Positions 559 to 16,211 of a DNA stretch of 17,319 nt are shown here, piece after piece. The notes under the pieces are model-generated. The model was given only the letters and a program-made list of their open reading frames with translations. It was not told the DNA's origin and searched no databases. Each line of letters opens with the position of its first letter. Positions within the stretch are counted from its first letter, which is position 1. The translations under genes were made by a program, and so were the position numbers. Origin of the DNA: a virus (Duplodnaviria; Heunggongvirae; Uroviricota; Caudoviricetes); the IMG/VR virus record IMGVR_UViG_2547132281_000005; one strand, written 5' to 3'.

Positions 559-565
559 TGAATGC

Positions 566-598
566 AAAACCCCGGATGATCACCGGGGTTAATTTTAT
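566..598 (+). terminator. Rho-independent terminator after the Rha gene
   Basis: GC stem CCCCGG (570-575) / CCGGGG (583-588) with 7-nt loop, followed by TTAATTTTAT. Confidence 0.6.
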
Positions 599-684
599 CG
601 AGCGTGATTGCCGCTAATCGCCATCGCTCTGATTGAGCGTAAATCATTCAGGTTATTCAGTTCTTCCTTCTGCTCTCGCTGACG

Positions 685-864
685 TCAATAAATCCCATCA
701 TTGCGATCAACCTCATCCTTAACCATTGATGCGAGCAGTTCTTCCAGTTTCTGCGCTGACAGCTTTACCTGGTGATCTTCAGCATCTTCCCGGGCTATTG
801 TGGTTCGCGCAGTGGCTGATTTTGCTGACATCACCACAGGGGGCAGACGGACCATTGAACCATG
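685..864 (-). CDS. Hypothetical small protein (about 56 aa from ATG at 864)
   Basis: Track ORF 685-966 starts at a TTG inside the repeat hairpin. The internal ATG at 864 (MVRLPPVVMSAKS...) has a GGAGG 10 nt upstream, and another ATG lies at 840. No recognisable family. Confidence 0.2.
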   Translation of the reverse strand, partial: HGSMVRLPPVVMSAKSATARTTIAREDAEDHQVKLSAQKLEELLASMVKDEVDRNDGIY

Positions 865-918
865 GCCTCCGGAACAAATAAGGGCAAAAATAACAACCAC
901 TATCGAAAGCTCACAAAC

Positions 919-1135
919 TAACCGCAGCACGTTCCTGCATACGACGTGTCTGCGGCATAATCCCAATGATTACTCCCTGACAGGATTTGCAGGCCACTCA
1001 ATATCAGGTGCAGTTGATGTATCAACACGATTCAACAATACCCGATATTTATTCCATGCCTCCAGCAACGATCTTTCTTCCTCCGTTGCGATTTCCAGAT
1101 CTACAGCATCCTGCAGTGGCGCAATATACTCACTG
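919..1135. repeat. Direct repeat copy A (tfa 3' end plus downstream hairpin)
   Basis: About 217 bp, roughly 85-90% identical by eye to 1969-2185 (constant offset 1050 bp), same orientation. Contains hairpin 922-955 about 15 nt after the tfa-like stop. Confidence 0.7.
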
Positions 1136-1239
1136 AATTCCTGGATGTAGAACTGTGTGGTGACGGTCTTCCAGCCATTCGGCTCCTGCTGTATCGAAGC
1201 ATACCAGGCTATTTCAATATCGCTATGCTGCGGCAGCAT
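970..1239 (-). CDS. Short chimeric tail fibre assembly (Tfa)-like protein, 89 aa
   Basis: C-terminal 52 aa ([52 protein letters not shown]) differ at only 5 positions from the Tfa C-terminus at 2019-2603. N-terminal 36 aa are unrelated. ATG at 1239 is preceded by AAGGGG with a 4-nt spacer. Confidence 0.5.
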
Positions 1240-1295
1240 TTAACCCCTTGTAATTCATCGCCATAATTGATTTAATTCACAAATAAAACTATAAC

Positions 1296-1964
1296 ATGGT
1301 GAAATCAATGAAAAAAAACACAGATGATGGGGCTAAAATTTACACACCACTTACCCTAAAGCTTTATGACTGGTGGGTTTTGGGAGTATCAAATCGGCTT
1401 GCATGGGGATGTCCTACAAAGGAACACCTTCTTCCACACTTTCTGGAACATGTAGGTAACAACCATCTGGATATTGGTGTTGGAACTGGGTTTTACCTTA
1501 CTCACGTACCTGAGAGTAGTCTGATATCTTTAATGGATTTGAACGAAGCTAGCCTGAACGCGGCATCTACAAGGGCTGGGGAATCAAAAATTAAACATAA
1601 AATTAGCCATGATGTTTTTGAACCTTATCCCGCGGCGTTACATGGTCAATTTGATTCCATTTCCATGTTTTACCTTCTTCACTGCCTGCCTGGAAATATA
1701 TCTACAAAAAGCTGTGTAATACGCAATGCGGCGCAGGCCTTAACTGACGATGGAACTCTATACGGAGCCACAATTCTTGGCGATGGAGTTGTGCACAATA
1801 GCTTCGGTCAAAAACTGATGCGCATTTACAATCAGAAAGGCATCTTTTCAAACACAAAAGATTCCGAAGAAGGCTTAACACATATACTCTCAGAGCATTT
1901 CGAGAATGTTAAAACCAAGGTTCAAGGTACTGTAGTAATGTTTTCCGCTTCAGGGAAAAAATAG
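1296..1964 (+). CDS. Class I SAM-dependent methyltransferase (about 220 aa)
   Basis: Motif I LDIGVGTGFYL, acidic residue after beta-2 (MDLN), and later FDSISMFYLLHCLP and LTDDGTLYGATI blocks typical of the Rossmann-fold methyltransferase layout. Alternative start ATG at 1308 has GGTGA 5 nt upstream. Stop TAG at 1962-1964. Confidence 0.7.
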   Translation: MVKSMKKNTDDGAKIYTPLTLKLYDWWVLGVSNRLAWGCPTKEHLLPHFLEHVGNNHLDIGVGTGFYLTHVPESSLISLMDLNEASLNAASTRAGESKIKHKISHDVFEPYPAALHGQFDSISMFYLLHCLPGNISTKSCVIRNAAQALTDDGTLYGATILGDGVVHNSFGQKLMRIYNQKGIFSNTKDSEEGLTHILSEHFENVKTKVQGTVVMFSASGKK

Positions 1965-1968
1965 CATC

Positions 1969-2185
1969 CAACCGCAGCACGTTCTTGCTTAAGACGAGCT
2001 GCGGCATAATCCCAATGATTACTCCCTGACAGGGTTCGTAGGCCACTCAATATCAGGTGCAGTTGATGTATCAACACGGTTCAGCAACACCCGATACTTT
2101 TTCCAGGCTTCCAGCAATGAGGTTTCTTCCTCCGTTGCAATTTCCAGATCTGCAGCATCCTGAAGCGGCGCAATATGCTCACTGG
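1969..2185. repeat. Direct repeat copy B (tfa 3' end plus downstream hairpin)
   Basis: Partner of 919-1135; contains hairpin 1972-2004 immediately after the convergent stops of the methyltransferase and tfa. Confidence 0.7.
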
Positions 2186-2603
2186 CTACCTGCATCAGGT
2201 TGTTTTTTGTTTCTTCCGCCTCCCGGATCCGGAACAGTTTTTCTGCTTCCGTATCCTTCACCCAGGCTGTGCCGTTCCACTTCTGAAACTCCCCTTCCGG
2301 CGATAACCAGGTAACATTTTCCGGTAACGGACCGAGTTCAGAAATAAATAACTCGTCCCCTGACGCTACGTCATAAACCGTTTTACCCCGATGGTCTTCA
2401 ACGAGATGCCACGATGCCTCATCACTGTTGAAAACAGCCACAAAGCCAGCAGGAATATCTGGTGGTGCAATATCGGTACTGTTTGCTGGCAGACCTGTAT
2501 GAGGCGGAATATATGCGTCACCTTCACCAATAAATTCATTAGTTCCGGCCAGCAGATTATAAATTTTTATGGTCCGTGCTTGTTCACTCATTCTGAATGC
2601 CAT
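2019..2603 (-). CDS. tfa: Tail fibre assembly protein Tfa (194 aa)
   Basis: Same length as lambda Tfa (194 aa) and conserved Tfa C-terminal block. Its ATG (2603-2601) overlaps the stop of the upstream fibre ORF in a TAATG arrangement, as in the lambda stf-tfa pair. Confidence 0.85.
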
Positions 2604-3550
2604 TATGCAAGCCTCACAATATAGTTAAATGCGATGTTTTTGACGGTGTTTTCCGCGTTACCCGCAGCGTTAACGGTGATGGTGTGTCCATGTGAACCAA
2701 TCGCAACGGAGTGCGTATGCGCACCAATACCTACAGTATGTGCATGTGCGCCAGAACTTGCTGCAGTACCAGACAGCGAGTGGGTATGAGCACCTGCTGA
2801 CTGTGTCTGAATACGTTGATAATACGATCTATAGGAAGAAGTCTCCGGGCTTACTTGATACTGTGAATTCTGGACATAAGTGAACCCACCGCCATCATAA
2901 AATGCTAACGCAGAACCGCCGCCTCCTGGCCAACGAATACCATTACCATGAGTATGAACACCGGCAGACCCCGTAGAGCCACTCAGACTGTGCGTATGCG
3001 CCCCGGTGTTATTCGTGGATTTAGTGCCGTAATCAAACGACGATGTGGTTTTCGTCCCCAAATCCGTACTGGATGCGCTGGCGCTGTGGGTGTGCGATTT
3101 AATGCCGTCCTGTTCCTGAGACAATACGGCCCGGCCACTGGCGGGTTTGCCCTTGATTGTCCAGCCGCGCATATCTGGAATAACACCTGAAGGATAGGCA
3201 ATAGCCAGTTTCGGATATGCTGCCTTATCAAACGTCTGCCCCTGCATGATTGCATAACCTGCAGGTGGTGTATCTGATGGCCACGGCAGCGGAACACCTG
3301 GCGGAAACGCTTCAATATTTGCCGAGCCGTCAAATTTTACGCCGTTAATTGTCCTTGCAGTTTGCAATTTGGTTGCTGTGCTTGCATTAGTCGAGGCTAA
3401 GGGCTTTTTTAACCTCGCATCCGCGCCTGCGGTAACACTGAATGAGCCATTCGGCCTGTTCTTCAGTGCATGGGGGGTGCTGGTACCAGTCTGACTTAAA
3501 TGCATGAGAATACCGCTCGTGCGTGTGGGCAAGAACGGTCGAATTATCAT
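2603..3550 (-). CDS. stf: Side tail fibre protein, C-terminal fragment (lambda orf-314-like), N-terminally truncated
   Basis: 315-aa ORF rich in G/S/T/A with repeated GAHTHS / HxH motifs and a [13 protein letters not shown] block typical of Stf C-terminal regions. The frame hits a stop at 3602-3604 just upstream and the ATG at 3550 has no RBS, so the N-terminal shaft portion is missing. Confidence 0.6.
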
Positions 3551-3578
3551 GATTGTAATATTTTGCGTTGCGTGCCAT
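3387..3578 (-). CDS. Hypothetical 63-aa protein overlapping the stf fragment in another frame
   Basis: ATG at 3578 preceded by GGAGA with a 6-nt spacer; sequence is not fibre-like ([23 protein letters not shown]...). Could instead be a chance ORF. Confidence 0.35.
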
Positions 3579-3644
3579 CGGTTTTCTCCGGTGGCACGGT
3601 GTTACTCAGCGGGAGTTCAGCCCCGCGCAAGATTGTAGATGAGT

Positions 3645-3896
3645 TTATTCTTCTGAAAAAGCAGAAAAGCCAGCTTTTATTCCGATCTCTTTCAATGCCT
3701 GTAATGAAGTGACAAACTCACCGTCGCGCAAGATAAATCCGTCCGTCACTCGGGCATCCACAAAATTAATTAACGCAGCCCCATTTTTTTGCAAACACAC
3801 AATGCGGTAATGACTAACAATATTTCCATTTTCAACGCACACAGCATAGAGGCCATCTTCACAAAAAATTTTACGCAGTTCTTCGATGTTCATCAT
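3645..3896 (-). CDS. Hypothetical 83-aa protein
   Basis: Tandem ATG ATG at 3896-3891 preceded by GGAAGGA with a 5-nt spacer. No recognisable family. Confidence 0.5.
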   Translation of the reverse strand: MMNIEELRKIFCEDGLYAVCVENGNIVSHYRIVCLQKNGAALINFVDARVTDGFILRDGEFVTSLQALKEIGIKAGFSAFSEE

Positions 3897-4011
3897 CAGA
3901 ATCCTTCCGGATAATTAGCTCTCCCCTTTAAGGGACCATCCCTCTTATCCCTGCGCGCTACTTAAGTATTTTTGATTCTATTCCGGCACCGTCCAGAACT
4001 TCAAACGCGTT

Positions 4012-4043
4012 GAAAATAAAAACAAAAACCCGCCGAAGCGGGT
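4012..4043 (-). terminator. Rho-independent terminator of the hok transcript
   Basis: On the minus strand: stem ACCCGC / GCGGGT (4028-4043) with 4-nt loop, followed by TTTTTGTTTTTATTTT (complement of 4012-4027). Confidence 0.55.
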
Positions 4044-4112
4044 TAAGTGCGGGTGCGTTGAGGATGCCTGCCACATCAGAGGTGGCGAGGGATTTCTCCC
4101 TCGCCGGGTCTC

Positions 4113-4268
4113 TTACTCCTCAGGTTCGTAAGCTGTGAAGACAGCGACCTCCGTCTGGCCGGTTCGGATTCGTACCTCGCAGAGGTCTTTCCTCGTTACC
4201 AGTGCCGTCACTATGACGGTTAAACAGATGACGATCAGGGCGATTAGCATCGCCTTTTGCTGCTTCAT
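4113..4268 (-). CDS. hok: Hok/Gef family type I toxin (51 aa)
   Basis: MKQQKAMLIALIVICLTVIVTALVTRKDLCEVRIRTGQTEVAVFTAYEPEE closely matches the Hok/Gef family as I recall it. ATG at 4268 preceded by GGAGA; stop TAA at 4113-4115. Confidence 0.85.
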   Translation of the reverse strand: MKQQKAMLIALIVICLTVIVTALVTRKDLCEVRIRTGQTEVAVFTAYEPEE

Positions 4269-4325
4269 AGCCTGCTTCTCCTTGCCTTTCGGCACGTAAG
4301 AGGCTAACCTACGTGTGTAGAGCAT
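4113..4325 (-). CDS. mok: Mok (modulator of killing) reading frame, in-frame N-terminal extension of hok
   Basis: 70-aa ORF sharing the stop and frame with hok, as in chromosomal mokC/hokC. Confidence 0.55.
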   Translation of the reverse strand: MLYTRRLASYVPKGKEKQAMKQQKAMLIALIVICLTVIVTALVTRKDLCEVRIRTGQTEVAVFTAYEPEE

Positions 4326-4370
4326 AGGTATGGCCTCAGATTAATGTTAAGCGTCTTGCCGGACGCGTAA
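4295..4370 (+). ncRNA. sok: Putative Sok-like antisense RNA (position inferred, boundaries approximate)
   Basis: Inferred from hok/sok organisation: the antisense RNA should overlap the mok initiation region. A plus-strand hairpin GCGTC-ttgccg-GACGC lies at 4351-4366 but lacks a clean U-run, so the end is uncertain. Confidence 0.25.
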
Positions 4371-4443
4371 TGTTAACTGGGGCTTTTCTCTATCTGCCTT
4401 TGGTGTTGATGCCCGAGGCAGATAGCCTCAAGCACCCGCAGCA

Positions 4444-4472
4444 ATTCTACTTAACTACCGTTACCTCGCCAA
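4444..4472 (-). promoter_or_regulatory. Candidate sigma-70 promoter for the hok/mok mRNA
   Basis: Minus strand reads TTGGCG (complement of 4467-4472), 17-nt spacer, TAGAAT (complement of 4444-4449). A 9-bp stem 4390-4398 / 4417-4425 sits in the predicted 5' leader. Confidence 0.4.
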
Positions 4473-4479
4473 TATGAAA

Positions 4480-4569
4480 TCAATCAGAAAGGTGATCCAT
4501 AAGAACAACAGCAAGACAATAAATTGCCATTACAGCAGCAATAGCCAGCGCACATTTGAGAACCAGCAC
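4480..4569 (-). CDS. Candidate small hydrophobic peptide (29-30 aa, type I toxin-like)
   Basis: AGGAGG (complement of 4575-4580), 5-nt spacer, GTG at 4569; encodes VLVLKCALAIAAVMAIYCLAVVLMDHLSD, then TGA (4482-4480). The DNA here is TGY-repetitive and open in several frames, so this may be chance. Confidence 0.25.
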   Translation of the reverse strand: MLVLKCALAIAAVMAIYCLAVVLMDHLSD

Positions 4570-4947
4570 CACAACCTCCTGTATTGGACGTACACCAGTC
4601 CTGATAAATATGAGGCTGTCTCGTCAGTGATTCAATACAACTACTGGGTATAGTTTCTATGATTTTGTTCTGTGGAAATGGAAAACAGCAACCAGTCACC
4701 ACCAGCACTTCTTTAAACATGCCAAGTCACACGCAAGCCAACATTATAGTTCCCTTTGAGCGAGCAGATGAAGCTAGCAAAAATATTGATCACTTAGGAT
4801 GCATTACTAACGTTGCTATGTGTTAACGAACAGGGAGTGGGTCATCAGCATAAATATTTATGCAGTAGGTTTCTTTTAGGACTAGATTAATCAAAAACAT
4901 TTAGATAAAATTATAAAATCAAGAAATTGGTGGCAATTAATCTTTAA

Positions 4948-4976
4948 TTGTGCCAGCTGAATTTCGTTATTATAGA
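4948..4976 (+). promoter_or_regulatory. Candidate promoter for the membrane-protein/methyltransferase operon
   Basis: TTGTGC (4948-4953), 17-nt spacer, TATAGA (4971-4976) in an AT-rich region upstream of the GGAGAG SD and ATG at 5011. Confidence 0.3.
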
Positions 4977-5326
4977 AGATTAGCTTTTTTTTGAATGTTT
5001 GGAGAGTAAAATGTTAGAACCACCAAAGAGTTATAATGAAATGTTGCCTATGCTCCATAAGGCGACTTTTATTACTACATTTATATTTTACCTATCATTA
5101 GTCATTTATGGCTACATGCCATTGGTTGGCATTAATGCCAAGTATATCCCCCCCGTTAAAGACTACGAGGAATTTATTAAATGGATATTAACCTTTGGCA
5201 TATTACCAATTGCATCTTCAGTTTTTTGGTCAGTAATTAGTGGAGCTTTAGATCTACATAATAATGTAGCAAAAATTATTGGAATAAGGAAGATGTGGGA
5301 TAGTCATTTAATTATTAAACCATTAG

Positions 5327-6521
<1,195 letters not shown>

Positions 6522-6911
6522 TTAGCAAAAATTGCAGGCGTTACGAGAAAATTAACTACTGATGAATCTCACAAGGTAATGAGTAAACTGTATTACCCAG
6601 AAGTTAAAGAGTTAAAAGACAAACATTACGTTGAACTTTTCTGGAACAAAGTTTATTACTTTTGGGTTTTCTTTGAACATACAGTAATCGCATTTGTTAC
6701 TATTTTAATAATAAGTATCGCCAAATTAACAAATATATTCTCTGTTACTGGCTCTTTAATTAATCTTTGGTTGTGGATTATTTCTCTTGTCGCATTTGAC
6801 TTCCTTATTTTCATAGCATCAGTTAAACCAAGAACAGAAAGCCAAGTAAGACAAATACCTGATAGCAAAATAAAAGAATTCTTTAACAATAACAATATTT
6901 TTTAAACGAGG

Positions 6912-7571
6912 TTGATTTTGAATTACAAAATAAATGGAATAAACATACGTTCAGAAAATGCAGCGAAACCGCACACTATGCCATCTAACTATCTCTGTAA
7001 ACAGATTGAAAGCACTAATAAAAATGGCAATGCCCTTGATTTTGGATGTGGAAAACTTAGATATTCAGAACAATTAGTAAATAAATTTGAAACTGTGACA
7101 TTTTTAGATTCCAGAAGACAACTAGAAAGAGTGCAAATTATCAGAGGTGTACAAACCACGATTCCAGATTACGTGATAAATAACTATAAGAATGCTAATA
7201 TTGTTTCTTATGAAAATATAGATAAAATAACAAATCATTATGATTTCATACTTTGCGCAAACGTGCTTTCCGCAATTCCATGTGAATCCACAATTCACAA
7301 AGTCCTCAGTGCGATTAGAGAATTATTAAAGAGTGATGGTGAAGCACTGATTGTCAATCAATACAAAAGTTCTTATTTCAAGAGGTACGAGAGCGGTATT
7401 AAACATTTGCATGGGTATATATACCAAAACTCTCGTAATGCTTTCTACTATGGTTTATTAGATGTGGATACTGTAAGTAAAATATGCTCAGATAATAATT
7501 TAGAAATAATAAAATCATGGAGCAAAGCAGGTAGTTCATATGTGGTTGTTGGTAAACATATACATATTTAG
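6912..7571 (+). CDS. TehB-like class I SAM-dependent methyltransferase (about 217-219 aa)
   Basis: Motif I ALDFGCGKL, acidic LDSR, YDFILCANVLSAIP and LKSDGEALIV blocks resemble TehB-type methyltransferases. Likely start is TTG 6918 (GAGG 6908-6911, 6-nt spacer) or TTG 6912; begins 7 nt after the membrane-protein stop. Confidence 0.7.
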   Translation: MILNYKINGINIRSENAAKPHTMPSNYLCKQIESTNKNGNALDFGCGKLRYSEQLVNKFETVTFLDSRRQLERVQIIRGVQTTIPDYVINNYKNANIVSYENIDKITNHYDFILCANVLSAIPCESTIHKVLSAIRELLKSDGEALIVNQYKSSYFKRYESGIKHLHGYIYQNSRNAFYYGLLDVDTVSKICSDNNLEIIKSWSKAGSSYVVVGKHIHI

Positions 7572-7885
7572 TTTATTTCAACAAATTATTAGAAAGAGTG
7601 ATTTGCTTGTTAATTATTAGCTCGGCAGTGCCGGATCAACATGACCCTGCCACTTAGGCCATTGCCGGTTTACCTACTTTTGTAAGGTTCAGCATGAAGT
7701 TTTTATATACTCTTCCTAATATCAATAGTGATGCTCGCTTATGTTAGCTGCTTCTTGTACATAGTAGCCTTCTCCGACAGTACTGCAATGAGCGGAGAGT
7801 AAAAGTCGATAAACAATAAGGAGGTTCACAATAAATATTTCTCGGTGAAACTTTCAAAGCATTCTCTGTTTTGCTAAATCGACAA

Positions 7886-8785
7886 TTATAAATCAACAAC
7901 ATTTAGTGTTATATCAATATTATTTAGCCTTGCAATCTCTGATGAATCACTTGCTATTTTAGCTTTTAATTTATCAATATTAATCATATCTTCATGGCTT
8001 ATATAAACCATATCACCTTGGTTAACTTTAGATTTGTTCACTATGGCTTGAATAACAGACAAATCATCCATTACACCTCTCATAAATTTCACCATGCTTT
8101 GATCTTTGAAGTCAGATATCGATTTTGAGCGTTGCTTACGTTGAATTGTTCCTTTTGTAATTACTTCATTAATTTCTTTTAAACCAGTGAGCATATCAGA
8201 CAGACTGCCTTCGCAACTCATCCGATGTTTTATTGCATTGCGATTAATAATATTGAGTATAATTTCGAGTGAATCTTTATCACTCCATGGATGTAATGAT
8301 GTATAATCATGATGGCGTCGAATGGCGTCAATCATATCCTGGACCATATCTTCATCTGCTTTATCGCAAAGTTCATTCACGAAATAGCTGGGGTCGATTA
8401 TTTTACAATAACTTGGAGTTAGGTATCTTGAGGCTTTACAAAAACCAAAAATATATAAAGTAGAGTATTTATCTTTCAGACTCTCTCCTATTTCATTTGT
8501 TTCCTCAAAAGATTCGATAGTTTTTTTAATTTTTGCTGGACTTGCATTCGTAGTAACTTGAACTGCTATCATGTTTTTATTATCAGCTAAATCAATGGCG
8601 GGAAAATTAACTTTAATCTGATTCATGTTTACCAGTTCACCCATTTTCAGCGCGCGAAACATAAAGATGGTCAATGACTCAATTATTCTTTCCATGTCAT
8701 GAAAGCCTGCCTGTTTGCGTTGCGCGATATAAAGCTGGAGTAGTGCAATATCACTCTGTAAGTTTCTAATAAGTGGATCAATCAT
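7886..8785 (-). CDS. Hypothetical 299-aa protein, AT-rich orphan (candidate defence/abortive-infection gene)
   Basis: ATG at 8785 with AGGA upstream; long uninterrupted ORF, convergent with the methyltransferase. No recognisable catalytic motif (no HExxH, no Walker A, no TM segments). Confidence 0.7.
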   Translation of the reverse strand: MIDPLIRNLQSDIALLQLYIAQRKQAGFHDMERIIESLTIFMFRALKMGELVNMNQIKVNFPAIDLADNKNMIAVQVTTNASPAKIKKTIESFEETNEIGESLKDKYSTLYIFGFCKASRYLTPSYCKIIDPSYFVNELCDKADEDMVQDMIDAIRRHHDYTSLHPWSDKDSLEIILNIINRNAIKHRMSCEGSLSDMLTGLKEINEVITKGTIQRKQRSKSISDFKDQSMVKFMRGVMDDLSVIQAIVNKSKVNQGDMVYISHEDMINIDKLKAKIASDSSEIARLNNIDITLNVVDL

Positions 8786-9037
8786 AGCTAATAATCCTTT
8801 TCAATGAAGCTGGAGGTGTGTTTAACTATTAGTTAAATTTCTATTTTTATAGAAACAAGCTTTACAACTTCATCAAAGTTTCTCAAATCCTAATCCACTT
8901 TGCAAATCCACTAACCATGCTGAATGCTTTCTGTTGTTAAACATATCCGCTGCTGGCACCAAGCAGACAAACACACTAACTCTACCCTACTCCACAAAAG
9001 AGCCAATCAATATCTGAACTAATAAACTTTAATCTCA

Positions 9038-9460
9038 TCACTTCAATAAATATCGAGCATTTCCCTGATAGAATGCTAGTATGCGCTGCATAACTTCACT
9101 CTTCCGGCACTCGCGACAGATTATGTTCTGACGCCTGTCGTAGCGACGTATTTCTCCGTCAGGTAATGACCAGATAAGGTCCGGATCAACCGCAGATGGT
9201 TCCTTCAGCTTTGCCCTTGAGAGCTTTTTACGGGCATTTTGCCAGTCCTTACGCGCCTGTTCAGACGGGAATAACCCGTAACCAGAGTTGTATACATCGC
9301 CGCTGGCAACCAGCTCTCTTGCGAGAACGCTCATCAGATATCTTGTCGCACCTGTCTTGACTTCCAGTTGCCGTAACGTCTCACGACCGCTCTGGCGCAC
9401 GAGTTCCACCACCTGCCCTTTAATTTTTTCCCGCTCTTCTTGTGTAAAAACTTTTGCCAC
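9038..9460 (-). CDS. Hypothetical 140-aa protein (possible DNA-binding protein)
   Basis: GTG start at 9460 preceded by AAGGGGG with a 4-nt spacer. N-terminal helical region (ETLRQLEVKTGATRYLMSVLARELV) and basic C-terminus. Confidence 0.55.
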   Translation of the reverse strand: MAKVFTQEEREKIKGQVVELVRQSGRETLRQLEVKTGATRYLMSVLARELVASGDVYNSGYGLFPSEQARKDWQNARKKLSRAKLKEPSAVDPDLIWSLPDGEIRRYDRRQNIICRECRKSEVMQRILAFYQGNARYLLK

Positions 9461-9500
9461 AAGTCCCCCTTAAAATTACCTCATGACCTGAAATCAAAAC

Positions 9501-10520
9501 TTATCCTCTGAAACCAGGCGGAATTTCTGTATCCGGTTCAGAAATATGATTAACACAACGCTGTACAGGTGAACGCCCCAGGCGGATGACCAGTTCGTCC
9601 CATTTTTCGCGGAGCTTTGACGGGCTCATGATGTTTTTTACCCAGAACGGATCCCGCTGTACCCGACCAAACATTTCACAAATTTGTCTGTGGCTTCTGC
9701 CATCCAGCATCCGCATTGTGCGCACATCATTGGCCCAGACAGTCCAGTTAGGCTCTTTTGGTCGCATGATCTCGCCATCATCACTGGCGGCCTGTTCGTA
9801 GAGACCCACGATCCGCCCCCATATCCACTGCGCACACGCCAGATCCTCCTGGCTACCCCACTGGCGTTTTTTCGCACTAAACACAACTGCGCCAGGGTGC
9901 CGGATTAAAAAATCCTGTTCAGCCGTCTGCGGGTCCGGTTGCGAAGCTTCCGGACGAAAAGTGTTTTTATTCTCTGTAGTAATCTCTGTTGTATTCTCTG
10001 TAGGATCATCGGGCCATTTTGACCCGATGACATTGGGTCGTTTTGAACCAATGGAGCGTTTCATTTTGACCTCTTCCATCGTGTCATTTTGACCTGATGG
10101 AGCGGCGCATTTTGAACCGATGGATTCGCTCAATTTGCCATCATCTAAAAGCTCGCTCCCATAGTTAATCGTGTAGAAATTGGTCATATCGCGCTTTGAT
10201 TTATTGAGCTTTTCACAACGCAAGAGCCCCAGCGTTTTCAGACTTGCAAACGCGCGCTTTAACGTTGACTCTGACCAGAATGGGAACTGTTCCAGCCATT
10301 GTTCCGTTGTGTTGTAAATCCAGCGAACACCATCACATTCCATGCCGGAATTGGTATCTCTCAACCAGTAATGCAACTGCTGCAACACAATGGCTTCATT
10401 TAAGCCAATCTTCATCGCAAGCTGTGTGTTTATAACCAGTGGGCGTTCAGCAAAAAGAAGGCTCATAATTCCATCCAGCTTTTTGTTGGTATTGCTGTCG
10501 ATACGCAAGTTTGAAAGCAA
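9501..10520 (-). CDS. Phage replication initiation protein (replisome organiser, O-like) with internal origin iterons
   Basis: N-terminal region (LNEAIVLQQLHYWL...WIYNTTEQWLEQFPFWSESTLKRAFASLKTLGLL) resembles phage replisome-organiser N-domains; repetitive middle encoded by the iterons. Real start may be ATG 10466 (MSLLFAERP...), which shortens the overlap with the upstream gene to 20 nt. Confidence 0.7.
   Translation of the reverse strand: MLSNLRIDSNTNKKLDGIMSLLFAERPLVINTQLAMKIGLNEAIVLQQLHYWLRDTNSGMECDGVRWIYNTTEQWLEQFPFWSESTLKRAFASLKTLGLLRCEKLNKSKRDMTNFYTINYGSELLDDGKLSESIGSKCAAPSGQNDTMEEVKMKRSIGSKRPNVIGSKWPDDPTENTTEITTENKNTFRPEASQPDPQTAEQDFLIRHPGAVVFSAKKRQWGSQEDLACAQWIWGRIVGLYEQAASDDGEIMRPKEPNWTVWANDVRTMRMLDGRSHRQICEMFGRVQRDPFWVKNIMSPSKLREKWDELVIRLGRSPVQRCVNHISEPDTEIPPGFRG
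10015..10123. repeat. Iteron array (candidate replication origin) inside the replication gene
   Basis: Five copies of CATTTTGA(C/A)C-N-GATGG at 10015, 10039, 10062, 10085 and 10108 (23-24 bp spacing; third copy degenerate), preceded by three TCTCTGT(A/T)G repeats at 9971-10004. Confidence 0.6.
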
Positions 10521-10968
10521 TTGCTTTTTCTATAAGTTCGTCAGTTTCACGATCCACTACGGCAGGATCAGCAAAAAGCAGTCCGGACTCCACCACATCG
10601 CCATATTCTTTGTTTAACCCGGCGATCATGTACGTGATGCTTTTTCCGTCACTAATTTCACGATACAACCTGAAATCATTAATCCGGATAGCCTCCATAA
10701 TTGCAGGCACTAGCGCCGTGAACTTTTCACGCTTATCCCTGGTGTCGATAGCCTTCCAGCGTTCGAATATCTTCACTCGATTAACGCCAAGCGCTCGCTG
10801 ATCAACCGCGCCACCTTCATCTGTGACACGCTGAACATCGATGTTCGGGCGCTCTTTCAAAGCCCAGAATGCTTCAGTGATTAATATCGTCGCCTGCTCC
10901 TGTGTCATTCCTGGTCGACATATCCAGGCATCCAGAGCCTCACGAGCCTGTTCAGGAGTGATTTTCAT
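10447..10968 (-). CDS. Hypothetical 173-aa protein in the cII / YdaT position
   Basis: Lies between the Cro-like gene and the replication gene on the same strand and overlaps the Cro-like stop by 17 nt. Family assignment is positional only. Confidence 0.55.
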   Translation of the reverse strand: MKITPEQAREALDAWICRPGMTQEQATILITEAFWALKERPNIDVQRVTDEGGAVDQRALGVNRVKIFERWKAIDTRDKREKFTALVPAIMEAIRINDFRLYREISDGKSITYMIAGLNKEYGDVVESGLLFADPAVVDRETDELIEKAIAFKLAYRQQYQQKAGWNYEPSFC

Positions 10969-11179
10969 TGTTCAACCGCCCCGCCCGCTTCGTCTTACGA
11001 TATTCGTCATAAACCTTGGGATCATACAGAAGCTCGCCGCCAGATGCCTCCTGTAGACGCATCGCGCGACCTTCAGGAACTAGCTCTTGCCATTGAGAAA
11101 CAGCAGATGGGTCAACGCCAGCAGCTTTCGCTACTTTGGCTTTCGTACCGTAAAAATTAATTACGTCTGATTTAAACAT
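10952..11179 (-). CDS. Cro-like / YdaS-like HTH regulator (about 75 aa)
   Basis: ATG at 11179 preceded by GGAGG (complement of 11184-11188) with a 4-nt spacer; HTH segment TKAKVAKAAGVDPSAVSQW; divergent from the repressor gene. Confidence 0.65.
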   Translation of the reverse strand: MFKSDVINFYGTKAKVAKAAGVDPSAVSQWQELVPEGRAMRLQEASGGELLYDPKVYDEYRKTKRAGRLNNENHS

Positions 11180-11191
11180 CGCACCTCCAAT

Positions 11192-11207
11192 ATTGAGTTT
11201 TCTCAAT
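11192..11207. promoter_or_regulatory. Palindromic operator candidate in the divergent repressor/cro promoter region
   Basis: Perfect 16-bp palindrome ATTGAGTTTTCTCAAT; the same TTGAGTTTTCTCA core recurs twice at 11729-11778. Confidence 0.45.
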
Positions 11208-11664
11208 GCTAATCACTCAAGGAATCTCAAGTCAAGGATTATTAAGATATCTAAATATGAACGAGAAAACTTTAGGTCAACGCATTAGAGAAAGACGTAA
11301 GCAGGTAGGCTTAAGTCAAAACGGTTTAAGCAAAGCTGCTGGCGTATCTGGCTCATCAATTTCATTATGGGAAAGTGACCATACAGCCCCGCGCGGGCAA
11401 AATTTGCATCGCCTCGCCGAGGTATTGCAATGTTCACCAACCTGGATACTGTTTGGCGACGAGGACAAAACACCAGCTCCCCCTGTTTCACTCGATAGTA
11501 CCCTAGACTTATCGGAAGATGAGTTAGAGATGCTGCGTTTGTATCGCGCACTTCCTAAATCAGAGCAACAAGCACAACTCAGCGAACTCCGCGCCCGCGT
11601 TGAGAATTTTAATCGCCTGTTCACCGAGCTATTAGAGGCTCGCAAACGCAACAAGCATCAATAA
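11206..11664 (+). CDS. cI/C2-like prophage repressor, N-terminal HTH (XRE family), no S24 peptidase domain
   Basis: From the internal ATG 11257 the protein starts MNEKTLGQRIRERRKQVGLSQNGLSKAAGVSGSSISLWE, like the P22 C2 / RacR-type N-terminus as I recall it. Either 11206 or 11257 may be the start; both lack a strong SD (possibly leaderless). Confidence 0.8.
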   Translation: MLITQGISSQGLLRYLNMNEKTLGQRIRERRKQVGLSQNGLSKAAGVSGSSISLWESDHTAPRGQNLHRLAEVLQCSPTWILFGDEDKTPAPPVSLDSTLDLSEDELEMLRLYRALPKSEQQAQLSELRARVENFNRLFTELLEARKRNKHQ

Positions 11665-11728
11665 TCATCCCTTCACAAAATTTTAAAGCCTTACATTTCA
11701 ATGTATTGGCTTTATCTTGCGCCAACAC

Positions 11729-11780
11729 TTGAGTTTTCTCATCAAAAAACCTTGACGAAAAATAATGAGAAAACTAAATT
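11729..11780 (+). promoter_or_regulatory. Candidate early-left promoter flanked by operator half-sites
   Basis: TTGACG (11752-11757), 17-nt spacer, TAAATT (11775-11780), bracketed by the inverted repeat TTGAGTTTTCTCAT (11729-11742) / ATGAGAAAACT (11765-11775). Confidence 0.4.
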
Positions 11781-11856
11781 ACCTCCATCAACACACCGCA
11801 CGGTGTTCTCCGCAAACAGTTCCGCTACCCCGGCGTTAAGGGGAAATGAGGTCAGC

Positions 11857-12012
11857 ATGGATACTATCGATCTTGGCAACAACGAATCTCTGGTGTACGG
11901 CGTGTTTCCAAACCAGGACGGCACGTTCACCGCAATGACGTATACCAAAAGCAAAACGTTTAAAACCGAAAATGGTGCCCGTCGCTGGCTGGAAAGAAAC
12001 TCAGGTGAGTGA
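11857..12012 (+). CDS. Hypothetical 51-aa protein (YdaF-like position and size)
   Basis: ATG 11857 with GAGG 5 nt upstream; MDTIDLGNNESLVYGVFPNQDGTFTAMTYTKSKTFKTENGARRWLERNSGE; stop TGA 12010-12012. Confidence 0.55.
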   Translation: MDTIDLGNNESLVYGVFPNQDGTFTAMTYTKSKTFKTENGARRWLERNSGE

Positions 12013-12013
12013 T

Positions 12014-12142
12014 ATGGATTTCGACACAATCATGGAAAAGGCTTACGAAGAATACTTCGAAGGCCTTGCCGAAGGCGAAGAAGCTCTCAGCTTCAGTGAG
12101 TTTAAACAGGCGCTTTCCAGCTCGGCAAAATCTAACGGCTGA
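12014..12142 (+). CDS. Hypothetical 42-aa acidic protein (YdaG-like position and size)
   Basis: ATG 12014 two nt after the upstream stop, with AGGTGA 5 nt upstream; MDFDTIMEKAYEEYFEGLAEGEEALSFSEFKQALSSSAKSNG. Not in the ORF track because it is under 60 aa. Confidence 0.4.
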   Translation: MDFDTIMEKAYEEYFEGLAEGEEALSFSEFKQALSSSAKSNG

Positions 12143-12171
12143 TAAGCGAAGCAGCACCGCGAGGAATCAGT

Positions 12172-12390
12172 ATGCAGAAACGAGAACCCGTCATCATCGC
12201 GCCAGACTATACCGATGATGAACTTTATGAGTGGATGCACCAGAAAATTAATGCAGCGCAGGATCTGAAATGGGCCAATGAAGCCAGGGCTAAGCAGGCT
12301 GAAAATCTGTCCGCTCTGGAGCAGGATATCACTAATCTGGAAAAAGCAGCGGCATTAAGCATTGCCAGAATGATTACATACCCGCGTTAA
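12172..12390 (+). CDS. Hypothetical 72-aa protein
   Basis: ATG 12172 with GAGGAA 5 nt upstream; stop TAA 12388-12390. Confidence 0.6.
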   Translation: MQKREPVIIAPDYTDDELYEWMHQKINAAQDLKWANEARAKQAENLSALEQDITNLEKAAALSIARMITYPR

Positions 12391-12393
12391 TAG

Positions 12394-12791
12394 CTAACCA
12401 ACGAAGCTAAGGTTGGTAATTAAGGAGTTCTCCACGGATGAGGTGGAGTGCGTGCGCCGGACACGGGTGAGCATCCGGCACAGACAGTTTACTGAAAGGA
12501 TATTTCCCTGAAAGGTCAGACCATAACGCGAAAGCGCACGGCGAGGTAGCTGGTTCATAGATAGCCTGTCGTTAAATTTTCGTCGACCGTGCGCTTCCGG
12601 TTGTGGCAATCCGCGAAATGGCGCGGCGGTGAGTATGGCGGGGTTATTCCTTCCCCGTTGAGGACACCGGGTTGTCAGGTTGACCATACGCTTAAGTGAC
12701 AACCCCGCTGCAACGCCCTCTGTTATCAATTTTCTGGTGACGTTTGGCGGTATCAGTTTTACTCCGTGACTGCTCTGCCGCCCTTTTTAAA
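12394..12791 (+). ncRNA. GC-rich structured non-coding region (candidate ncRNA or structured leader), strand assumed from the flanking operon
   Basis: No plausible ORF on either strand. Consecutive perfect stems: ACCAAC/GTTGGT (12397-12417), CTCCAC/GTGGAG (12430-12448), GCCGGA/TCCGGC (12456-12479), CGC-GAAA-GCG (12527-12536), GCGCACGG/CCGTGCGC (12534-12594), CCGCG/CGCGG (12611-12626), CGGGG/CCCCG (12639-12657), GGGTTGTCA/TGACAACCC (12669-12705), and GGCGG...CCGCC followed by CTTTTT (12746-12788). Confidence 0.3.
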
Positions 12792-12795
12792 GTGA

Positions 12796-12937
12796 ATTTT
12801 GTGATGCGGTGAATGCGGCTGAGCGCACGCGGAACAGTTAAAACCAAAAACAGTGTTATGGGTGGATTCTCTGTATCCGGCGTTAATTGTTAACTGGTTA
12901 ACGTCACCTGGAAGCACCAGGCACCGCATCACAAAAT
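12796..12937. repeat. Perfect 16-bp inverted repeat pair bracketing about 110 bp
   Basis: ATTTTGTGATGCGGTG (12796-12811) and its exact reverse complement CACCGCATCACAAAAT (12922-12937); interior carries GTTAAC-tg-GTTAAC palindromic sites. Confidence 0.5.
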
Positions 12938-12957
12938 TCATTGTTGAGGACGCGATA

Positions 12958-13146
12958 ATGGAAACGTTATTACCAAACGTTAATACGTCTGAAGGTTGTT
13001 TTGAAATTGGTGTCACTATCAGTAACCCTGTATTTACTGAAGATGCCATTAACAAGAGAAAACACGAACGGGAGCTATTAAATAAAATATGCATTCTTTC
13101 AATGTTGGCCCGTTTACGTCCGATACAAAAAGGATGCTGGCAATGA
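12958..13146 (+). CDS. Hypothetical 62-aa protein
   Basis: ATG 12958 with GAGGA 7 nt upstream; its stop TGA (13144-13146) overlaps the next ATG in an ATGA arrangement. Confidence 0.45.
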   Translation: METLLPNVNTSEGCFEIGVTISNPVFTEDAINKRKHERELLNKICILSMLARLRPIQKGCWQ

Positions 13147-13334
13147 ATACAGCATTTGCACTTGTTCTGACAGTTTTTCTTGTTTCCGGAGAGCCAGTTG
13201 ATATTGCAGTCAGTGTTCACAGGACAATGCAGGAGTGTGTGACTGCAGCAACCGAACAGAAAATTCCCGGTAACTGTTACCCGGTCGATAAAGTTATTCA
13301 CCAGGATAATAACGAAATCCCGGCAGGTCTTTAA
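13143..13334 (+). CDS. Small exported protein candidate (63 aa, N-terminal hydrophobic signal-like segment, two Cys)
   Basis: ATG 13143 with AAAGGA 8 nt upstream; MNTAFALVLTVFLVSGEPVDIAVSVHRTMQECVTAATEQKIPGNCYPVDKVIHQDNNEIPAGL. Confidence 0.5.
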   Translation: MNTAFALVLTVFLVSGEPVDIAVSVHRTMQECVTAATEQKIPGNCYPVDKVIHQDNNEIPAGL

Positions 13335-13426
13335 AACAGTTCCGTAATAAACATCCGATTTCATTCTTATATGCCAGCAATGGCAGGGATTTGTTCACCC
13401 TTAAATCTGTAATGAGGTAAAACAAA

Positions 13427-15898
13427 ATGAGTAAAGTCTTTATTTGCGCCGCCATTCCGGACGAACAGGCAATAAAGGAAGAAGGTGCCGTCGCTGTAGC
13501 CACTGCCATTGAAGCCGGTGATGAACGTCGCGCCCGCGCAAAATTTCACTGGCAATTCCTGGAACATTATCCGGCTGCTCAGGACTGCGCTTATAAATTT
13601 CTTGTTTGCGAGGATAAACCCGGTATACCCCGCCCTGCCCTCGATTCCTGGGATGCTGAATATATGCAGGAAAACCGCTGGGATGAGGCGTCTGCTTCCT
13701 TTGTCCCGGTCGAGACTGAATCCGATCCGATGAACGTCACTTTTGACAACCTAGCCCCTGAAGTACAGAACGCTGTCATGGTTAAGTTCCACACATGTGA
13801 AAAAATCACTGTTGATATGGTGATTAGCGCACAGGAATTGTTGCAGGAAGACATGGCAACATTCGACGGCCATATCGTTGAAGCGTTGATGAAAATGCCA
13901 GAAGTTAACGCTATGTATCCGGAGCTTAAGCTGCATGCCATCGGGTGGGTTAAGCATAAATGTAAGCCTGGTGCCAAATGGCCCGAAATTCAGGCAGAGA
14001 TGCGCATCTGGAAAAAACGTCGCGAAGGTGAACGCAAGGAAGCCGGAAAATACACGTCTGTTGTTGATCTCGCCCGCGCCAGAGTCAATCAACAGCACAC
14101 TGAAAATTCAACAGGAAAAATCAACCCGGTCATTGCTGCCATTCATCGCGAATACAAGCAGACATGGAAAACACTGGATGACGAACTGGCCTACGCTCTC
14201 TGGCCTGGTGATGTGGATGCCGGAAACATTGACGGCAGCATCCATCGCTGGGCAAAAAATGAAGTTATCGACAACGACCGCGAAGACTGGAAGCGTATCT
14301 CGGCATCAATGCGCAAACAGCCTGATGCCCTTCGCTACGACCGCCAGACTATTTTTGGCCTTGTCCGTGAACGTCCGATCGACATTCACAAAGACCCTGT
14401 GGCACTGAACAAATACATTACTGAATACCTGACTACAAAGGGCGTGTTTGAAGATGAAGGAAGAAATCAGAGCGCAACTGATACTCTCTCGTCGCCAGTA
14501 CCAGAAACTGATGCAGTGGAAACGGCAATTCCGGACAACGAAAAAACCGAATGCAAAGTGGAAGTCGAACCATCTGTAGAGCGTGAGGGGCCGTTCTACT
14601 TCCTCTTCACCGACAAGGATGGCGAAAAATACGGTCGCGCAAACAAACTTTCTGGTCTGGATAAGGCGCTGGCTGCCGGGGCAACTGAAATCACGAAAGA
14701 AGAATATTTTGCCCGCAAAAACGGCACATACACAGGTTCACAACAAAATACTGATGCATCTGACACGACCGCACAACCAGACCTGGTAAAAGTTACCGCT
14801 GACGAAGTAAACAAAATTATGCAGGCAGCCAGTATCAGCCAGCCTGACGCTAATAAGTTGCTCGCTGCATCACGTGGTGAATTTGTTGAAGGGATTAGCG
14901 ACCCGAATGATCCGAAATGGGTGAAGGGGATTGAAACCCGCGATTCTGTGCACCAGAACCAGTCAGAAACGGAACAGTACGACCAAAAAGCGGAACAAAA
15001 CAGCCAAAATGCGTTACAAAACGAGCCAGAAACGAAACAACCTGAACCAGTCGTGCAACAGGAAGAGGAAAAAGTTTGTACCGCATGCAATCAGACTGGT
15101 GGTGGTAACTGCCCTGATTGTGGCGCAGTGATGGGTGACGCAACCTACCAGGAGACATTCAACGAAGAAAGCCAGGATGAAGCCCGGGAAAAAGATCCAG
15201 AGGAAATAGAAAATGCCGGACTCCCGAACAAGGAGTGCACCGAAGGCGATCAACATGCCAATGACAATAATGAAATAGGCGAGACAGCAAATCCCTTAAT
15301 TAAGGTGAACAGTCATCGTAAAAGCACATCCACCAGCAGGTTGTGGCACCATCTGATGATTGACCTTGAAACCATGGGAAAAAATCCTGATGCCCCGATT
15401 ATCTCAATAGATGCAATATTTTTCGATCCGCAAACCGGAGATATGGGACCGGAATTTAGTAAGACTATCGATCTGGAAACTGCTGGCGGAGTCATTGATC
15501 GTGACGTCATTAAAAGGTGGCTGAAGCAATCACGTGAAGCGCAGTCTGCCATTATGACCGATGAAATCCCGTTAGATGATGCACTGTTACAATTGCGGGA
15601 ATTTATCGACGAAAACTCCGGTGAATTTTTTGTTCAGGTCTGGGGAAATGGAGCCAACTTCGAAAACACGATTTTGCGCCGTTCATACGAACGGCAGGGG
15701 ATCCCCTGCCCATGGCGTTACTACAACGATCGCGATGTACGCACAATCGTTGAGCTGGGGAAAGCCATAGACTTCGATGCCAGAACGGCTATTCCATTCG
15801 AAGGTGAGCGCCATAATGCACTTGATGACGCCCGTTACCAGGCAAAATACGTTTCAGTTATCTGGCAAAAACTGATCCCGAATCAGGCTGATTTTTAA
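13427..15898 (+). CDS. Large multidomain protein (823 aa) with C-terminal DnaQ/Orn-like DEDDh 3'-5' exonuclease domain
   Basis: ATG 13427 with GAGG upstream. Central acidic/Gln-rich linker and CxxC-x9-CxxC zinc-ribbon-like motif (CTACNQTGGGNCPDCG, about 15076-15123). C-terminal about 185 aa (15341-15895) carry MIDLETMG (Exo I), VWGNGANFENTIL (Exo II-like) and HNALDDARYQAKY (Exo III). Confidence 0.85.
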   Translation: MSKVFICAAIPDEQAIKEEGAVAVATAIEAGDERRARAKFHWQFLEHYPAAQDCAYKFLVCEDKPGIPRPALDSWDAEYMQENRWDEASASFVPVETESDPMNVTFDNLAPEVQNAVMVKFHTCEKITVDMVISAQELLQEDMATFDGHIVEALMKMPEVNAMYPELKLHAIGWVKHKCKPGAKWPEIQAEMRIWKKRREGERKEAGKYTSVVDLARARVNQQHTENSTGKINPVIAAIHREYKQTWKTLDDELAYALWPGDVDAGNIDGSIHRWAKNEVIDNDREDWKRISASMRKQPDALRYDRQTIFGLVRERPIDIHKDPVALNKYITEYLTTKGVFEDEGRNQSATDTLSSPVPETDAVETAIPDNEKTECKVEVEPSVEREGPFYFLFTDKDGEKYGRANKLSGLDKALAAGATEITKEEYFARKNGTYTGSQQNTDASDTTAQPDLVKVTADEVNKIMQAASISQPDANKLLAASRGEFVEGISDPNDPKWVKGIETRDSVHQNQSETEQYDQKAEQNSQNALQNEPETKQPEPVVQQEEEKVCTACNQTGGGNCPDCGAVMGDATYQETFNEESQDEAREKDPEEIENAGLPNKECTEGDQHANDNNEIGETANPLIKVNSHRKSTSTSRLWHHLMIDLETMGKNPDAPIISIDAIFFDPQTGDMGPEFSKTIDLETAGGVIDRDVIKRWLKQSREAQSAIMTDEIPLDDALLQLREFIDENSGEFFVQVWGNGANFENTILRRSYERQGIPCPWRYYNDRDVRTIVELGKAIDFDARTAIPFEGERHNALDDARYQAKYVSVIWQKLIPNQADF

Positions 15899-15962
15899 TG
15901 TTCAACCCCGGTCGTTGCCCACCAGCTATAGTGGCGGCGACCATGATTAGCGAACGACGCTC

Positions 15963-16211
15963 ATGGCAAGACTTATTCTGCTCACTGAGTGGGCAAAAGA
16001 GGAATTCAGTGAACCGGTCCCAACTCCGAGTACGTTAAGTAAATACGCTAAAGCCGGAATGATATTTCCTCTCCCCAAAAAAGTTGGAAGACGCTGGCGA
16101 GTGGATCCGCAAGCTCGCTTTGTCGGAATGGTAAACAAGCCGGAGGTGATCGCCACAGATCACCCTGCTTTGAAGAGGATACTGGAAGATGGCGCGCCCG
16201 CGAAAATATAA
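15963..16211 (+). CDS. xis: Excisionase (Xis)-like protein, 82 aa
   Basis: Small basic protein immediately upstream of and overlapping the integrase start; KYAKAGMIFPLPKKVGRRWRV resembles excisionase-type DNA-binding motifs. Confidence 0.7.
   Translation: MARLILLTEWAKEEFSEPVPTPSTLSKYAKAGMIFPLPKKVGRRWRVDPQARFVGMVNKPEVIATDHPALKRILEDGAPAKI

Follow-up and report, generated by a model that had tools for sequence, protein, structure and literature searches.

The closest characterised relative of the gene described here is the SMEK/Mrr-APAZ effector of Kordia jejudonensis ('SPARMA'), which belongs to a short prokaryotic Argonaute (pAgo) system of clade S2B. The literature describes SMEK as an 'Mrr-like' PD-(D/E)xK nuclease that clade S2B short-Argonaute systems employ, fused to APAZ, as their effector, and weak collateral DNase activity has been reported for the Kordia complex, the reports of activity being indirect. 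A literature search for stand-alone SMEK proteins, PF21941, 'Mrr-APAZ' and the SPARMA mechanism returned no paper. We analysed a 17,319-nucleotide stretch of DNA, called the window below, from IMG/VR virus record IMGVR_UViG_2547132281_000005 (Caudoviricetes). At 7886..8785 on its minus strand lies an SMEK-family gene whose product has an N-terminal nuclease domain homologous to that of the Kordia protein, followed by a C-terminal half that has no detectable homologue outside its own family and is a four-helix bundle instead of APAZ. By a slight balance of probability we favour, as the explanation of the whole, a single-gene, Argonaute-independent nuclease directed against phages or other mobile elements and controlled by its C-terminal domain.

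The presumed output is alike in the two proteins, namely DNA cleavage by an Mrr-like domain under a C-terminal module. The Kordia effector has APAZ, whereas the match of the SMEK protein to the corresponding PADLOC model ends at model position 143 of 463; the Kordia system has an Argonaute partner, whereas no pAgo was found among the window open reading frames (ORFs) scanned against Pfam, and no Piwi domain among the called neighbour genes of the homologue loci examined. Because there is no APAZ, no Argonaute/PIWI gene and no recurrent neighbour, guide-directed nucleic-acid recognition is excluded as the trigger. The gene may work like the Kordia effector, yet it is no member of a short-Argonaute system.

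Two further groups invite comparison. The nucleases of Mrr/Type IV and Type ISP enzymes (AF1548, the LlaBIII nuclease domain) are related as Mrr-like PD-(D/E)xK proteins, but they have Lys where the SMEK protein has Thr, and the SMEK protein has no match to Pfam Mrr_cat or Mrr_N; its nuclease domain is N-terminal and followed by the bundle, whereas Mrr/Type IV enzymes place a DNA-reader domain before the nuclease. In Shedu SduA and Cap4/NucC-type effectors, a nuclease of the restriction-endonuclease (REase) fold is held in check by an attached domain, and the genes lie in defence islands. This general logic is common to the SMEK protein, but its sequence gave no PADLOC match to any of them, and both domain order and regulatory domain differ. 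The protein is best described as a nuclease effector of known type whose single-gene, Argonaute-independent architecture is undescribed.

A two-domain protein with an SMEK nuclease fold

In the ORF list of the window, 7886-8785 on the minus strand is one unbroken ORF with an ATG start, encoding 299 amino acids plus stop, and its translation corresponds to RefSeq WP_000566847.1, already named 'SMEK domain-containing protein'. A Shine-Dalgarno sequence, AAGGA, stands at 8795-8799, 9 nt ahead of the ATG. The ORF has a GC content of 33.2% (27% at third codon positions), that of the prophage backbone at 9038-17319 being 47.5%, and the non-coding flanks are similarly AT-rich (37.6% GC at 7572-7885, 34.5% at 8786-9037). 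The protein is rich in Ile (12%), Asp (8.7%), Ser (8.4%) and Lys (8.4%), and its gene converges with a class I S-adenosylmethionine (SAM) methyltransferase at 6912-7571(+). A sequence scan found neither HExxH nor Walker A; the highest 19-residue Kyte-Doolittle score, 1.21, lies below the conventional threshold of about 1.6 for a transmembrane helix, and none is present. An earlier reading of this DNA from its letters only (the sequence-only reading) had described a long clean ORF with a plausible ribosome-binding site, low GC and a Lys/Asp/Ile-rich composition, convergent with the methyltransferase, flanked by AT-rich non-coding DNA and devoid of HExxH, Walker A and transmembrane segments, and in all of this it was right. 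It had also called the gene an orphan with no recognisable catalytic motif. The first claim falls to 108 homologues and to Pfam and NCBIfam SMEK models that match above cutoff, the second to an invariant E...D...QxT...K signature of an Mrr-like nuclease domain.

The ratio of nonsynonymous to synonymous substitution rates (dN/dS) is 0.20 against the Citrobacter orthologue and 0.14 against the Enterobacter orthologue. The gene is functional and under purifying selection, and with ratios of 0.14-0.20 the pseudogene that the sequence-only reading had kept in view is disfavoured. Nor was there homology to a housekeeping or phage structural family, the other outcome it had named; the domain that can be recognised is SMEK, an Mrr-like PD-(D/E)xK nuclease.

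The SMEK domain, a predicted nuclease effector, occupies residues ~1-145 (8351..8785, minus). Pfam SMEK_N (PF21941) matches residues 10-120 (E 1.6e-22, 80.3 bits, cutoff 27), and NCBIfam NF033859 matches residues 5-97 (E 4.9e-31, 106.4 bits, cutoff 30). A PADLOC model for an Argonaute-associated REase matches residues 8-146 (E 1e-20), over model positions 9-143 of 463 only. Compared with the PDB, the family profile matched one solved structure, 26bh (E 8.6e-13), which is the Mrr domain of the Kordia jejudonensis Mrr-APAZ pAgo. In that alignment E36, N60, D65, D68, Q76, T78 and K85 stand opposite identical residues, and the string NFPAIDLAD is shared.

E36, D65 (in 'FPAID'), Q76, T78 and K85 are invariant in 36 aligned family members that are 32-80% identical to the query, and the E...D...QxT...K signature was spotted by eye in six unaligned sequences of a more distant subfamily. 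The putative active-site codons span 8531..8680 on the minus strand (E36 at 8678-8680, D65 at 8591-8593, Q76 at 8558-8560, T78 at 8552-8554, K85 at 8531-8533). The domain has the alpha-beta-beta-beta-alpha-beta core fold. E36 lies in helix 1, D65 just before strand 2 (66-68) and Q76-V-T78 in strand 3 (73-81), and K85 begins the helix that follows strand 3. From this conservation a catalytic role is predicted for E36, D65, Q76, T78 and K85. The protein must be viewed as a genuine member of the SMEK domain family and, at the level of fold, of the REase-fold superfamily, with a non-canonical catalytic motif: Thr78 takes the place of the Lys in the D...(D/E/Q)-x-K that the superfamily has on beta-2 and beta-3.

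The C-terminal, family-specific domain covers residues ~146-299 (7889..8350, minus) and is an up-down four-helix bundle with small beta elements. It is as well conserved as the nuclease half; R182, A184, E192, G193, K221 and F226 are invariant. Searches of this domain against Pfam and against PDB sequences gave no significant match. Among 1.84 billion cluster representatives an exhaustive HMMER search found it in 92, where it almost invariably spans positions ~140-300 of a protein of ~290-320 amino acids; SMEK_N preceded it in nine of the nine most distant full-length matches scanned. SMEK paired with this bundle makes a fixed two-domain family. We regard the domain identities as very nearly certain. 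The protein is soluble, has two domains and belongs to a conserved family whose members come mainly from Proteobacteria.

Distribution, neighbourhoods and a shared prophage slot

The 108 homologues come from a protein database search and are 31-99% identical to the query, 106 of them reaching at least 41%; nearly all are about 300 amino acids long and align over their full length at 41-99% identity. Their hosts are Gammaproteobacteria, Betaproteobacteria and some Alphaproteobacteria; a scan of genomes extended the range to Epsilonproteobacteria, Verrucomicrobia and Planctomycetes. Among 5426 complete E. coli genomes 150 have the SMEK locus, chromosomal in every case. Over the family as a whole, the gene sits in prophages, plasmids, integrative islands and chromosomal islets. 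Some NCBI names for homologues read 'regulator', and one phage record bears the name 'regulator of acetyl CoA synthetase'; these are unsupported legacy annotations. Truncated alleles also occur, among them an E. coli form of 119 amino acids with 15 member sequences and partial Salmonella entries (clusters P0111 and P0035), a hint of occasional inactivation such as is seen with costly or toxic defence genes.

The N-terminal domain has a wider life. A profile search with it in a word-indexed protein database yielded mainly fragments and missed other SMEK architectures, which were read from plasmid records instead. Bacillus cereus pAH820_272 (L066) encodes a 344-residue SMEK_N protein beside genes for a TIR-domain and a HEPN-domain protein; Herpetosiphon pHAU01 (L065) encodes one of 1105 residues with TPR, beside a reverse transcriptase gene; and a Rhodobacter plasmid (L067) has one of 888 residues followed by a radical-SAM gene. 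The C-terminal parts of these three proteins are quite unlike that of the query, which suggests that SMEK_N is a widely reused effector module.

In many taxa the homologues often have defence or mobile-element genes nearby, an association judged from individual loci and from per-family counts in pooled PADLOC and Pfam neighbour scans rather than from a statistic. SMEK neighbours include Hachiman, a DUF87 ATPase and SymE in Cupriavidus; Abi_alpha in Vibrio; H-NS, PIN and an OLD-family ATPase with a UvrD helicase (Gabija-like) in Xanthomonas; and Lamassu and an AAA_15/21 pair in Citrobacter. The Pseudomonas locus is an integrase island with SLATT_5, and those of Enterobacter and Salmonella are resolvase/integrase islands with an AAA_13 ATPase, or with SymE and TacAT. 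The pooled neighbours further include a defence-type reverse transcriptase, IetA/IetS, integrases, RepB, TrwC and three Mrr_cat genes. When 252 neighbour ORFs from 19 loci were compared all against all by BLASTP, no family recurred. A conserved partner gene, considered as a candidate, is thereby rejected, and the SMEK gene is an autonomous unit with no conserved partner.

The gene also appears to bring its own regulation. Homology of the window to the Enterobacter and Salmonella loci is restricted to 7899-8968, that is, to the ORF and about 180 bp upstream; because it is confined in this way, the gene is judged, from such alignments, to move as a unit with its own upstream regulatory region (8786..8968, minus). 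Within that region, an alignment of relatives shows conservation of the Shine-Dalgarno sequence and of a block 'GATGA..TTGT.AAGCTT...TAAAAA' that is a possible promoter, and a distal conserved block 'GTGCCAG.AGC.GAC' marks the edge of homology. At 8940-8968 the conserved block 'GTCTGCT.GGTGCCAG.AGC.GAC', which has a short CTGCT/AGCAG inverted repeat, forms the outer edge of the co-travelling DNA, and does so in E. coli, C. koseri, Enterobacter and Salmonella alike. This block might terminate upstream transcription, serve as a regulatory site or mark a recombination boundary.

Two adjoining palindromes lie nearer the gene, at 8821..8837 and 8838..8855. The first is TTTAACTA-t-TAGTTAAA; the second, TTCTAT-tttt-ATAGAA at 8839-8854, extends to 7-nt arms at 8838-8855. 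It had been pointed out in the sequence-only reading, which rightly recognised it and placed it 2 nt away, at 8841-8856. The pair exceeds dinucleotide shuffles (p ~0.006-0.035). Neither palindrome is kept upstream of the closest relatives, in C. koseri and Enterobacter, and a conserved operator at this site is accordingly rejected.

The prophage that makes up the window is defective, of lambdoid (Qin/Rac-like) type and integrated beside ompW, and has the gene order int-xis-exo…dicB-DicF-ydfABC-cI/cro-ydaT-O-like-DUF977(Ren-like)-[SMEK]-[methyltransferase, hyp231]-hokD/sok-rem. The SMEK gene thus occupies a hypervariable accessory slot (4113..9460) with the DUF977/Ren-like gene (9038-9460, minus) at one end and hokD/sok (4113-4437, minus) at the other. 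Slot cargo differs in all six prophages compared, this one and five others. One sister prophage carries QueH with KwaA/KwaB, which is Kiwa (PADLOC E 1e-101 and 3e-159); another has a 798-residue ATPase that is PDC-S06 (PADLOC E = 0); a third has PD-T7-1 (PADLOC E 7e-157) with other genes of no recognised kind; a fourth has an orphan DNA methyltransferase with IS66 elements; and in the fifth there is a lone uncharacterised gene of 269 amino acids. The DUF977-hokD junction of Qin/Rac-like prophages is therefore a defence hotspot. Like the SMEK gene, Kiwa, PD-T7-1 and PDC-S06 lie between DUF977 and hokD and share its 'moron' lifestyle; they are unrelated proteins, and recognised systems or candidates, whereas the SMEK gene appears in no defence catalogue searched. 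Uncharacterised slot genes of 269, 314 and 326 amino acids (loci L027-L031) could be further defence candidates.

Proposed function and competing explanations

We judge a defence role for the SMEK gene to be fairly probable, and its catalytic activity, trigger and defence phenotype are inferred. The C-terminal domain is proposed to be a sensor, a regulator or an oligomerisation module. In the scheme that we have in mind, the bundle would replace APAZ and Argonaute as the controlling module and hold the nuclease inactive; a cue from infection would lead it to drive dimerisation or oligomerisation of the nuclease domains; and the assembled nuclease would degrade DNA, either restricting the invader directly or causing abortive infection. 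The oligomerisation step is proposed because REase-fold enzymes generally need to dimerise or oligomerise, and filament formation by SPARDA is a precedent for it (PMC12205087). This specific sensor-and-oligomerisation scheme is considerably less secure than the defence role, and we hold it as doubtful. Between the two stands a broader and tentative statement, to which we give rather less than an even chance, that the ~300-residue SMEK plus four-helix-bundle proteins are a new Argonaute-independent, single-gene immune family of Proteobacteria and a few other phyla, in which the bundle is a new infection sensor that activates the nuclease by oligomerisation. The sequence-only reading had likened the gene, from its size and context, to single-gene abortive-infection proteins; that likeness agrees with the autonomy of the gene, its defence context and the cargoes of the slot, although the premise of an orphan was mistaken.

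Several observations weigh against the explanation we favour. Among 50,697 isolated phage genomes there is no full-length homologue of the SMEK protein. PADLOC v2 recognised the N-terminal domain only, by its Argonaute-associated model, and called no system. The canonical Lys position of (D/E)xK is occupied by Thr78, and Foldseek, searching the full model against the PDB, found nothing significant (best E 0.17). The resemblance of the C-terminal domain to sensor four-helix bundles is generic, so that its 'sensor' role is a guess. Housekeeping genes flank some SMEK loci, a simple sigma-70 scan found no minus-strand site and no clear promoter in 8786-9037, and the literature search found no experimental report on any stand-alone SMEK protein.

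The alternative that survives best, though we think it unlikely, is a Type IV-like, modification-dependent restriction endonuclease in which the bundle helps to recognise the modification; it would act constitutively on modified phage DNA, not as a suicide effector awaiting a trigger. The SMEK domain is indeed Mrr-like, three Mrr_cat genes occur among the pooled neighbours, and the gene stands alone without a cognate DNA methyltransferase, as is expected of Type IV enzymes. However, neither Mrr_cat nor Mrr_N, nor a winged-helix, SRA or other DNA-reader domain, was detected in the protein; its C-terminal domain is a plain helical bundle; and in the sole setting in which the SMEK domain has been studied, it is a triggered effector.

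Quite unlikely, in our estimate, is a protein that serves the prophage or mobile element itself, as a nuclease of lytic growth (degrading host DNA, or acting in recombination) or as an addiction toxin. The SMEK gene points the same way as the early-right operon (cro, ydaT, O-like, DUF977), and a terminator scan of 7500-9100, which includes the gap between DUF977 and SMEK, found no terminator-like site; the gene is always on or near mobile elements, and hok/sok and other toxin-antitoxin genes lie nearby. Yet it is also found in small chromosomal islets and in defence islands without phage genes, no antitoxin-like partner is conserved, and sequenced virulent and temperate phage isolates lack it. 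The O-like plus DUF977 replication module is matched in 4227 of the 5426 complete E. coli genomes and the SMEK gene is present in 150 of those 4227, which marks it as dispensable cargo.

The substitution of Lys by Thr in (D/E)xK raises the question of a catalytically dead nuclease domain, the protein then being a DNA-binding regulator or a scaffold. T78 at the canonical position, the word 'regulator' in some NCBI names together with 'regulator of acetyl CoA synthetase' in the phage record, and the lack of a significant nuclease match in Foldseek would all fit. Against this, E36, D65, Q76 and K85 are not only invariant in the 36 aligned sequences and visible in the six distant ones but are common to the Kordia Mrr domain, whose complex cleaves DNA, and conservation of polar residues of this kind is typical of an active site. 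The invariant K85, on the next helix, may stand in for the canonical Lys. We consider inactivity very unlikely.

A last possibility for the protein itself is a dual DNase/RNase effector, the bundle being a divergent HEPN RNase. The HEPN signature is Rx4-6H (RNxxxH), a definition said to be that of Anantharaman et al. 2013. The string R182-N-A-I-K-H187 (8225-8242), conserved across the main clade, is compatible with it, the domain is an all-alpha four-helix bundle, and another SMEK protein, that of B. cereus, adjoins HEPN genes. Arg182 and Glu192 are universal in the family. However, none of 25 C-terminal domain sequences matches any HEPN Pfam family, even at E<=10, and His187 is replaced by Asp or Cys in the distant subfamily. 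With no Pfam HEPN match and a histidine that is not kept throughout the family, the HEPN assignment is not supported, and it appears most improbable.

Neighbouring genes, the remaining prophage and wider meaning

The DNA on the far side of the SMEK gene belongs with it to a low-GC cassette (4845..8968; about 3 kb and 32% GC, insertion sequence excluded) made up of hyp231, the methyltransferase and SMEK. The methyltransferase (6912..7571, plus) is a class I SAM enzyme of small-molecule type, matched by Pfam Methyltransf_12/23/11 and TehB and by no DNA-methyltransferase family in Pfam. The hyp231 gene (5011..6905, plus; 231 amino acids, WP_000892866.1 family), for which there were no Pfam or PADLOC matches, is split into fragments at 5011-5326 and 6522-6905 by an IS5-type element of 1195 bp (5327..6521; transposase 5473-6489, minus; Pfam DDE_Tnp_1 and DUF772) with a 4-bp target duplication. 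Strain 14EC017 (L001) has the arrangement free of the insertion, and the window in its entirety, IS5-type insertion included, finds no match among the complete E. coli genomes of the collection. The cassette is 87-88% identical in nucleotides to the C. koseri IncHI2 plasmid pK820-1.

A three-gene system, such as a nuclease with a modification or immunity function, is scarcely credible: where SMEK identity is 83-100% the trio does stay intact, with flanking DNA of at least three kinds (the prophage slot, the IncHI2 plasmid and other prophage contigs, the last including IMG/VR loci L054, L055, L057, L058 and L059 and reaching down to 83% SMEK identity), but SMEK occurs without the pair at 82% (L063), 77% and 69% identity and in all 18 deeper loci, the hyp231-methyltransferase pair has SMEK-free locations of its own, after ogr in P2-like prophages and near a relaxase, the methyltransferase fits small-molecule families and not DNA methyltransferases, and in this window the IS5-type element has destroyed hyp231 and left SMEK intact. 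Since each occurs alone, that system is rejected, and the SMEK gene and the hyp231-methyltransferase pair are adjacent yet independent accessory modules. The pair is a two-gene module restricted to enterobacteria (L068-L073). In Enterobacter and Providencia it follows ogr immediately in P2-like prophages, elsewhere it lies near a relaxase, and it may be a candidate accessory or defence module in its own right.

The left part of the window, 1-4437, shows a prophage that is rearranged and defective. It holds a Rha-family gene (1-558), a second class I SAM methyltransferase unrelated to the first (1296-1964), a tail-fibre assembly gene (2019-2603, minus) and a tail-fibre gene (2603-3550, minus); the tail-fibre genes adjoin rem and hokD, and the DUF968-rusA-Q region of strain 14EC017 is absent. 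Three RNA features score above the Rfam gathering score: the sok antitoxin RNA beside hokD (4263-4437, minus), the DicF small RNA (12732-12783, plus) and the family 'IS009' (2062-2260, minus), which lies within the tail-fibre assembly gene. To the right of the SMEK gene, 9038-10520 is 100% identical to E. coli 55989 (NC_011748.1).

Whatever the function of the SMEK gene, the DUF977-hokD junction can be mined for further systems, because its flanking replication module matches so many complete E. coli genomes. Prophage defence genes in clinical E. coli lineages also matter for the host range of phages used in therapy. If the explanation we favour is confirmed, it would add to prophage-borne immunity a compact single-gene nuclease system, 0.9 kb with its own promoter, and would define a new sensor or regulatory domain. 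It would also supply a second and simpler experimental model for the SMEK/Mrr-like effector, so far represented by one Argonaute complex. If the broader statement on a new immune family is true, the 'SMEK' effector of short-pAgo systems would be a plug-in module, reused with entirely different sensors.

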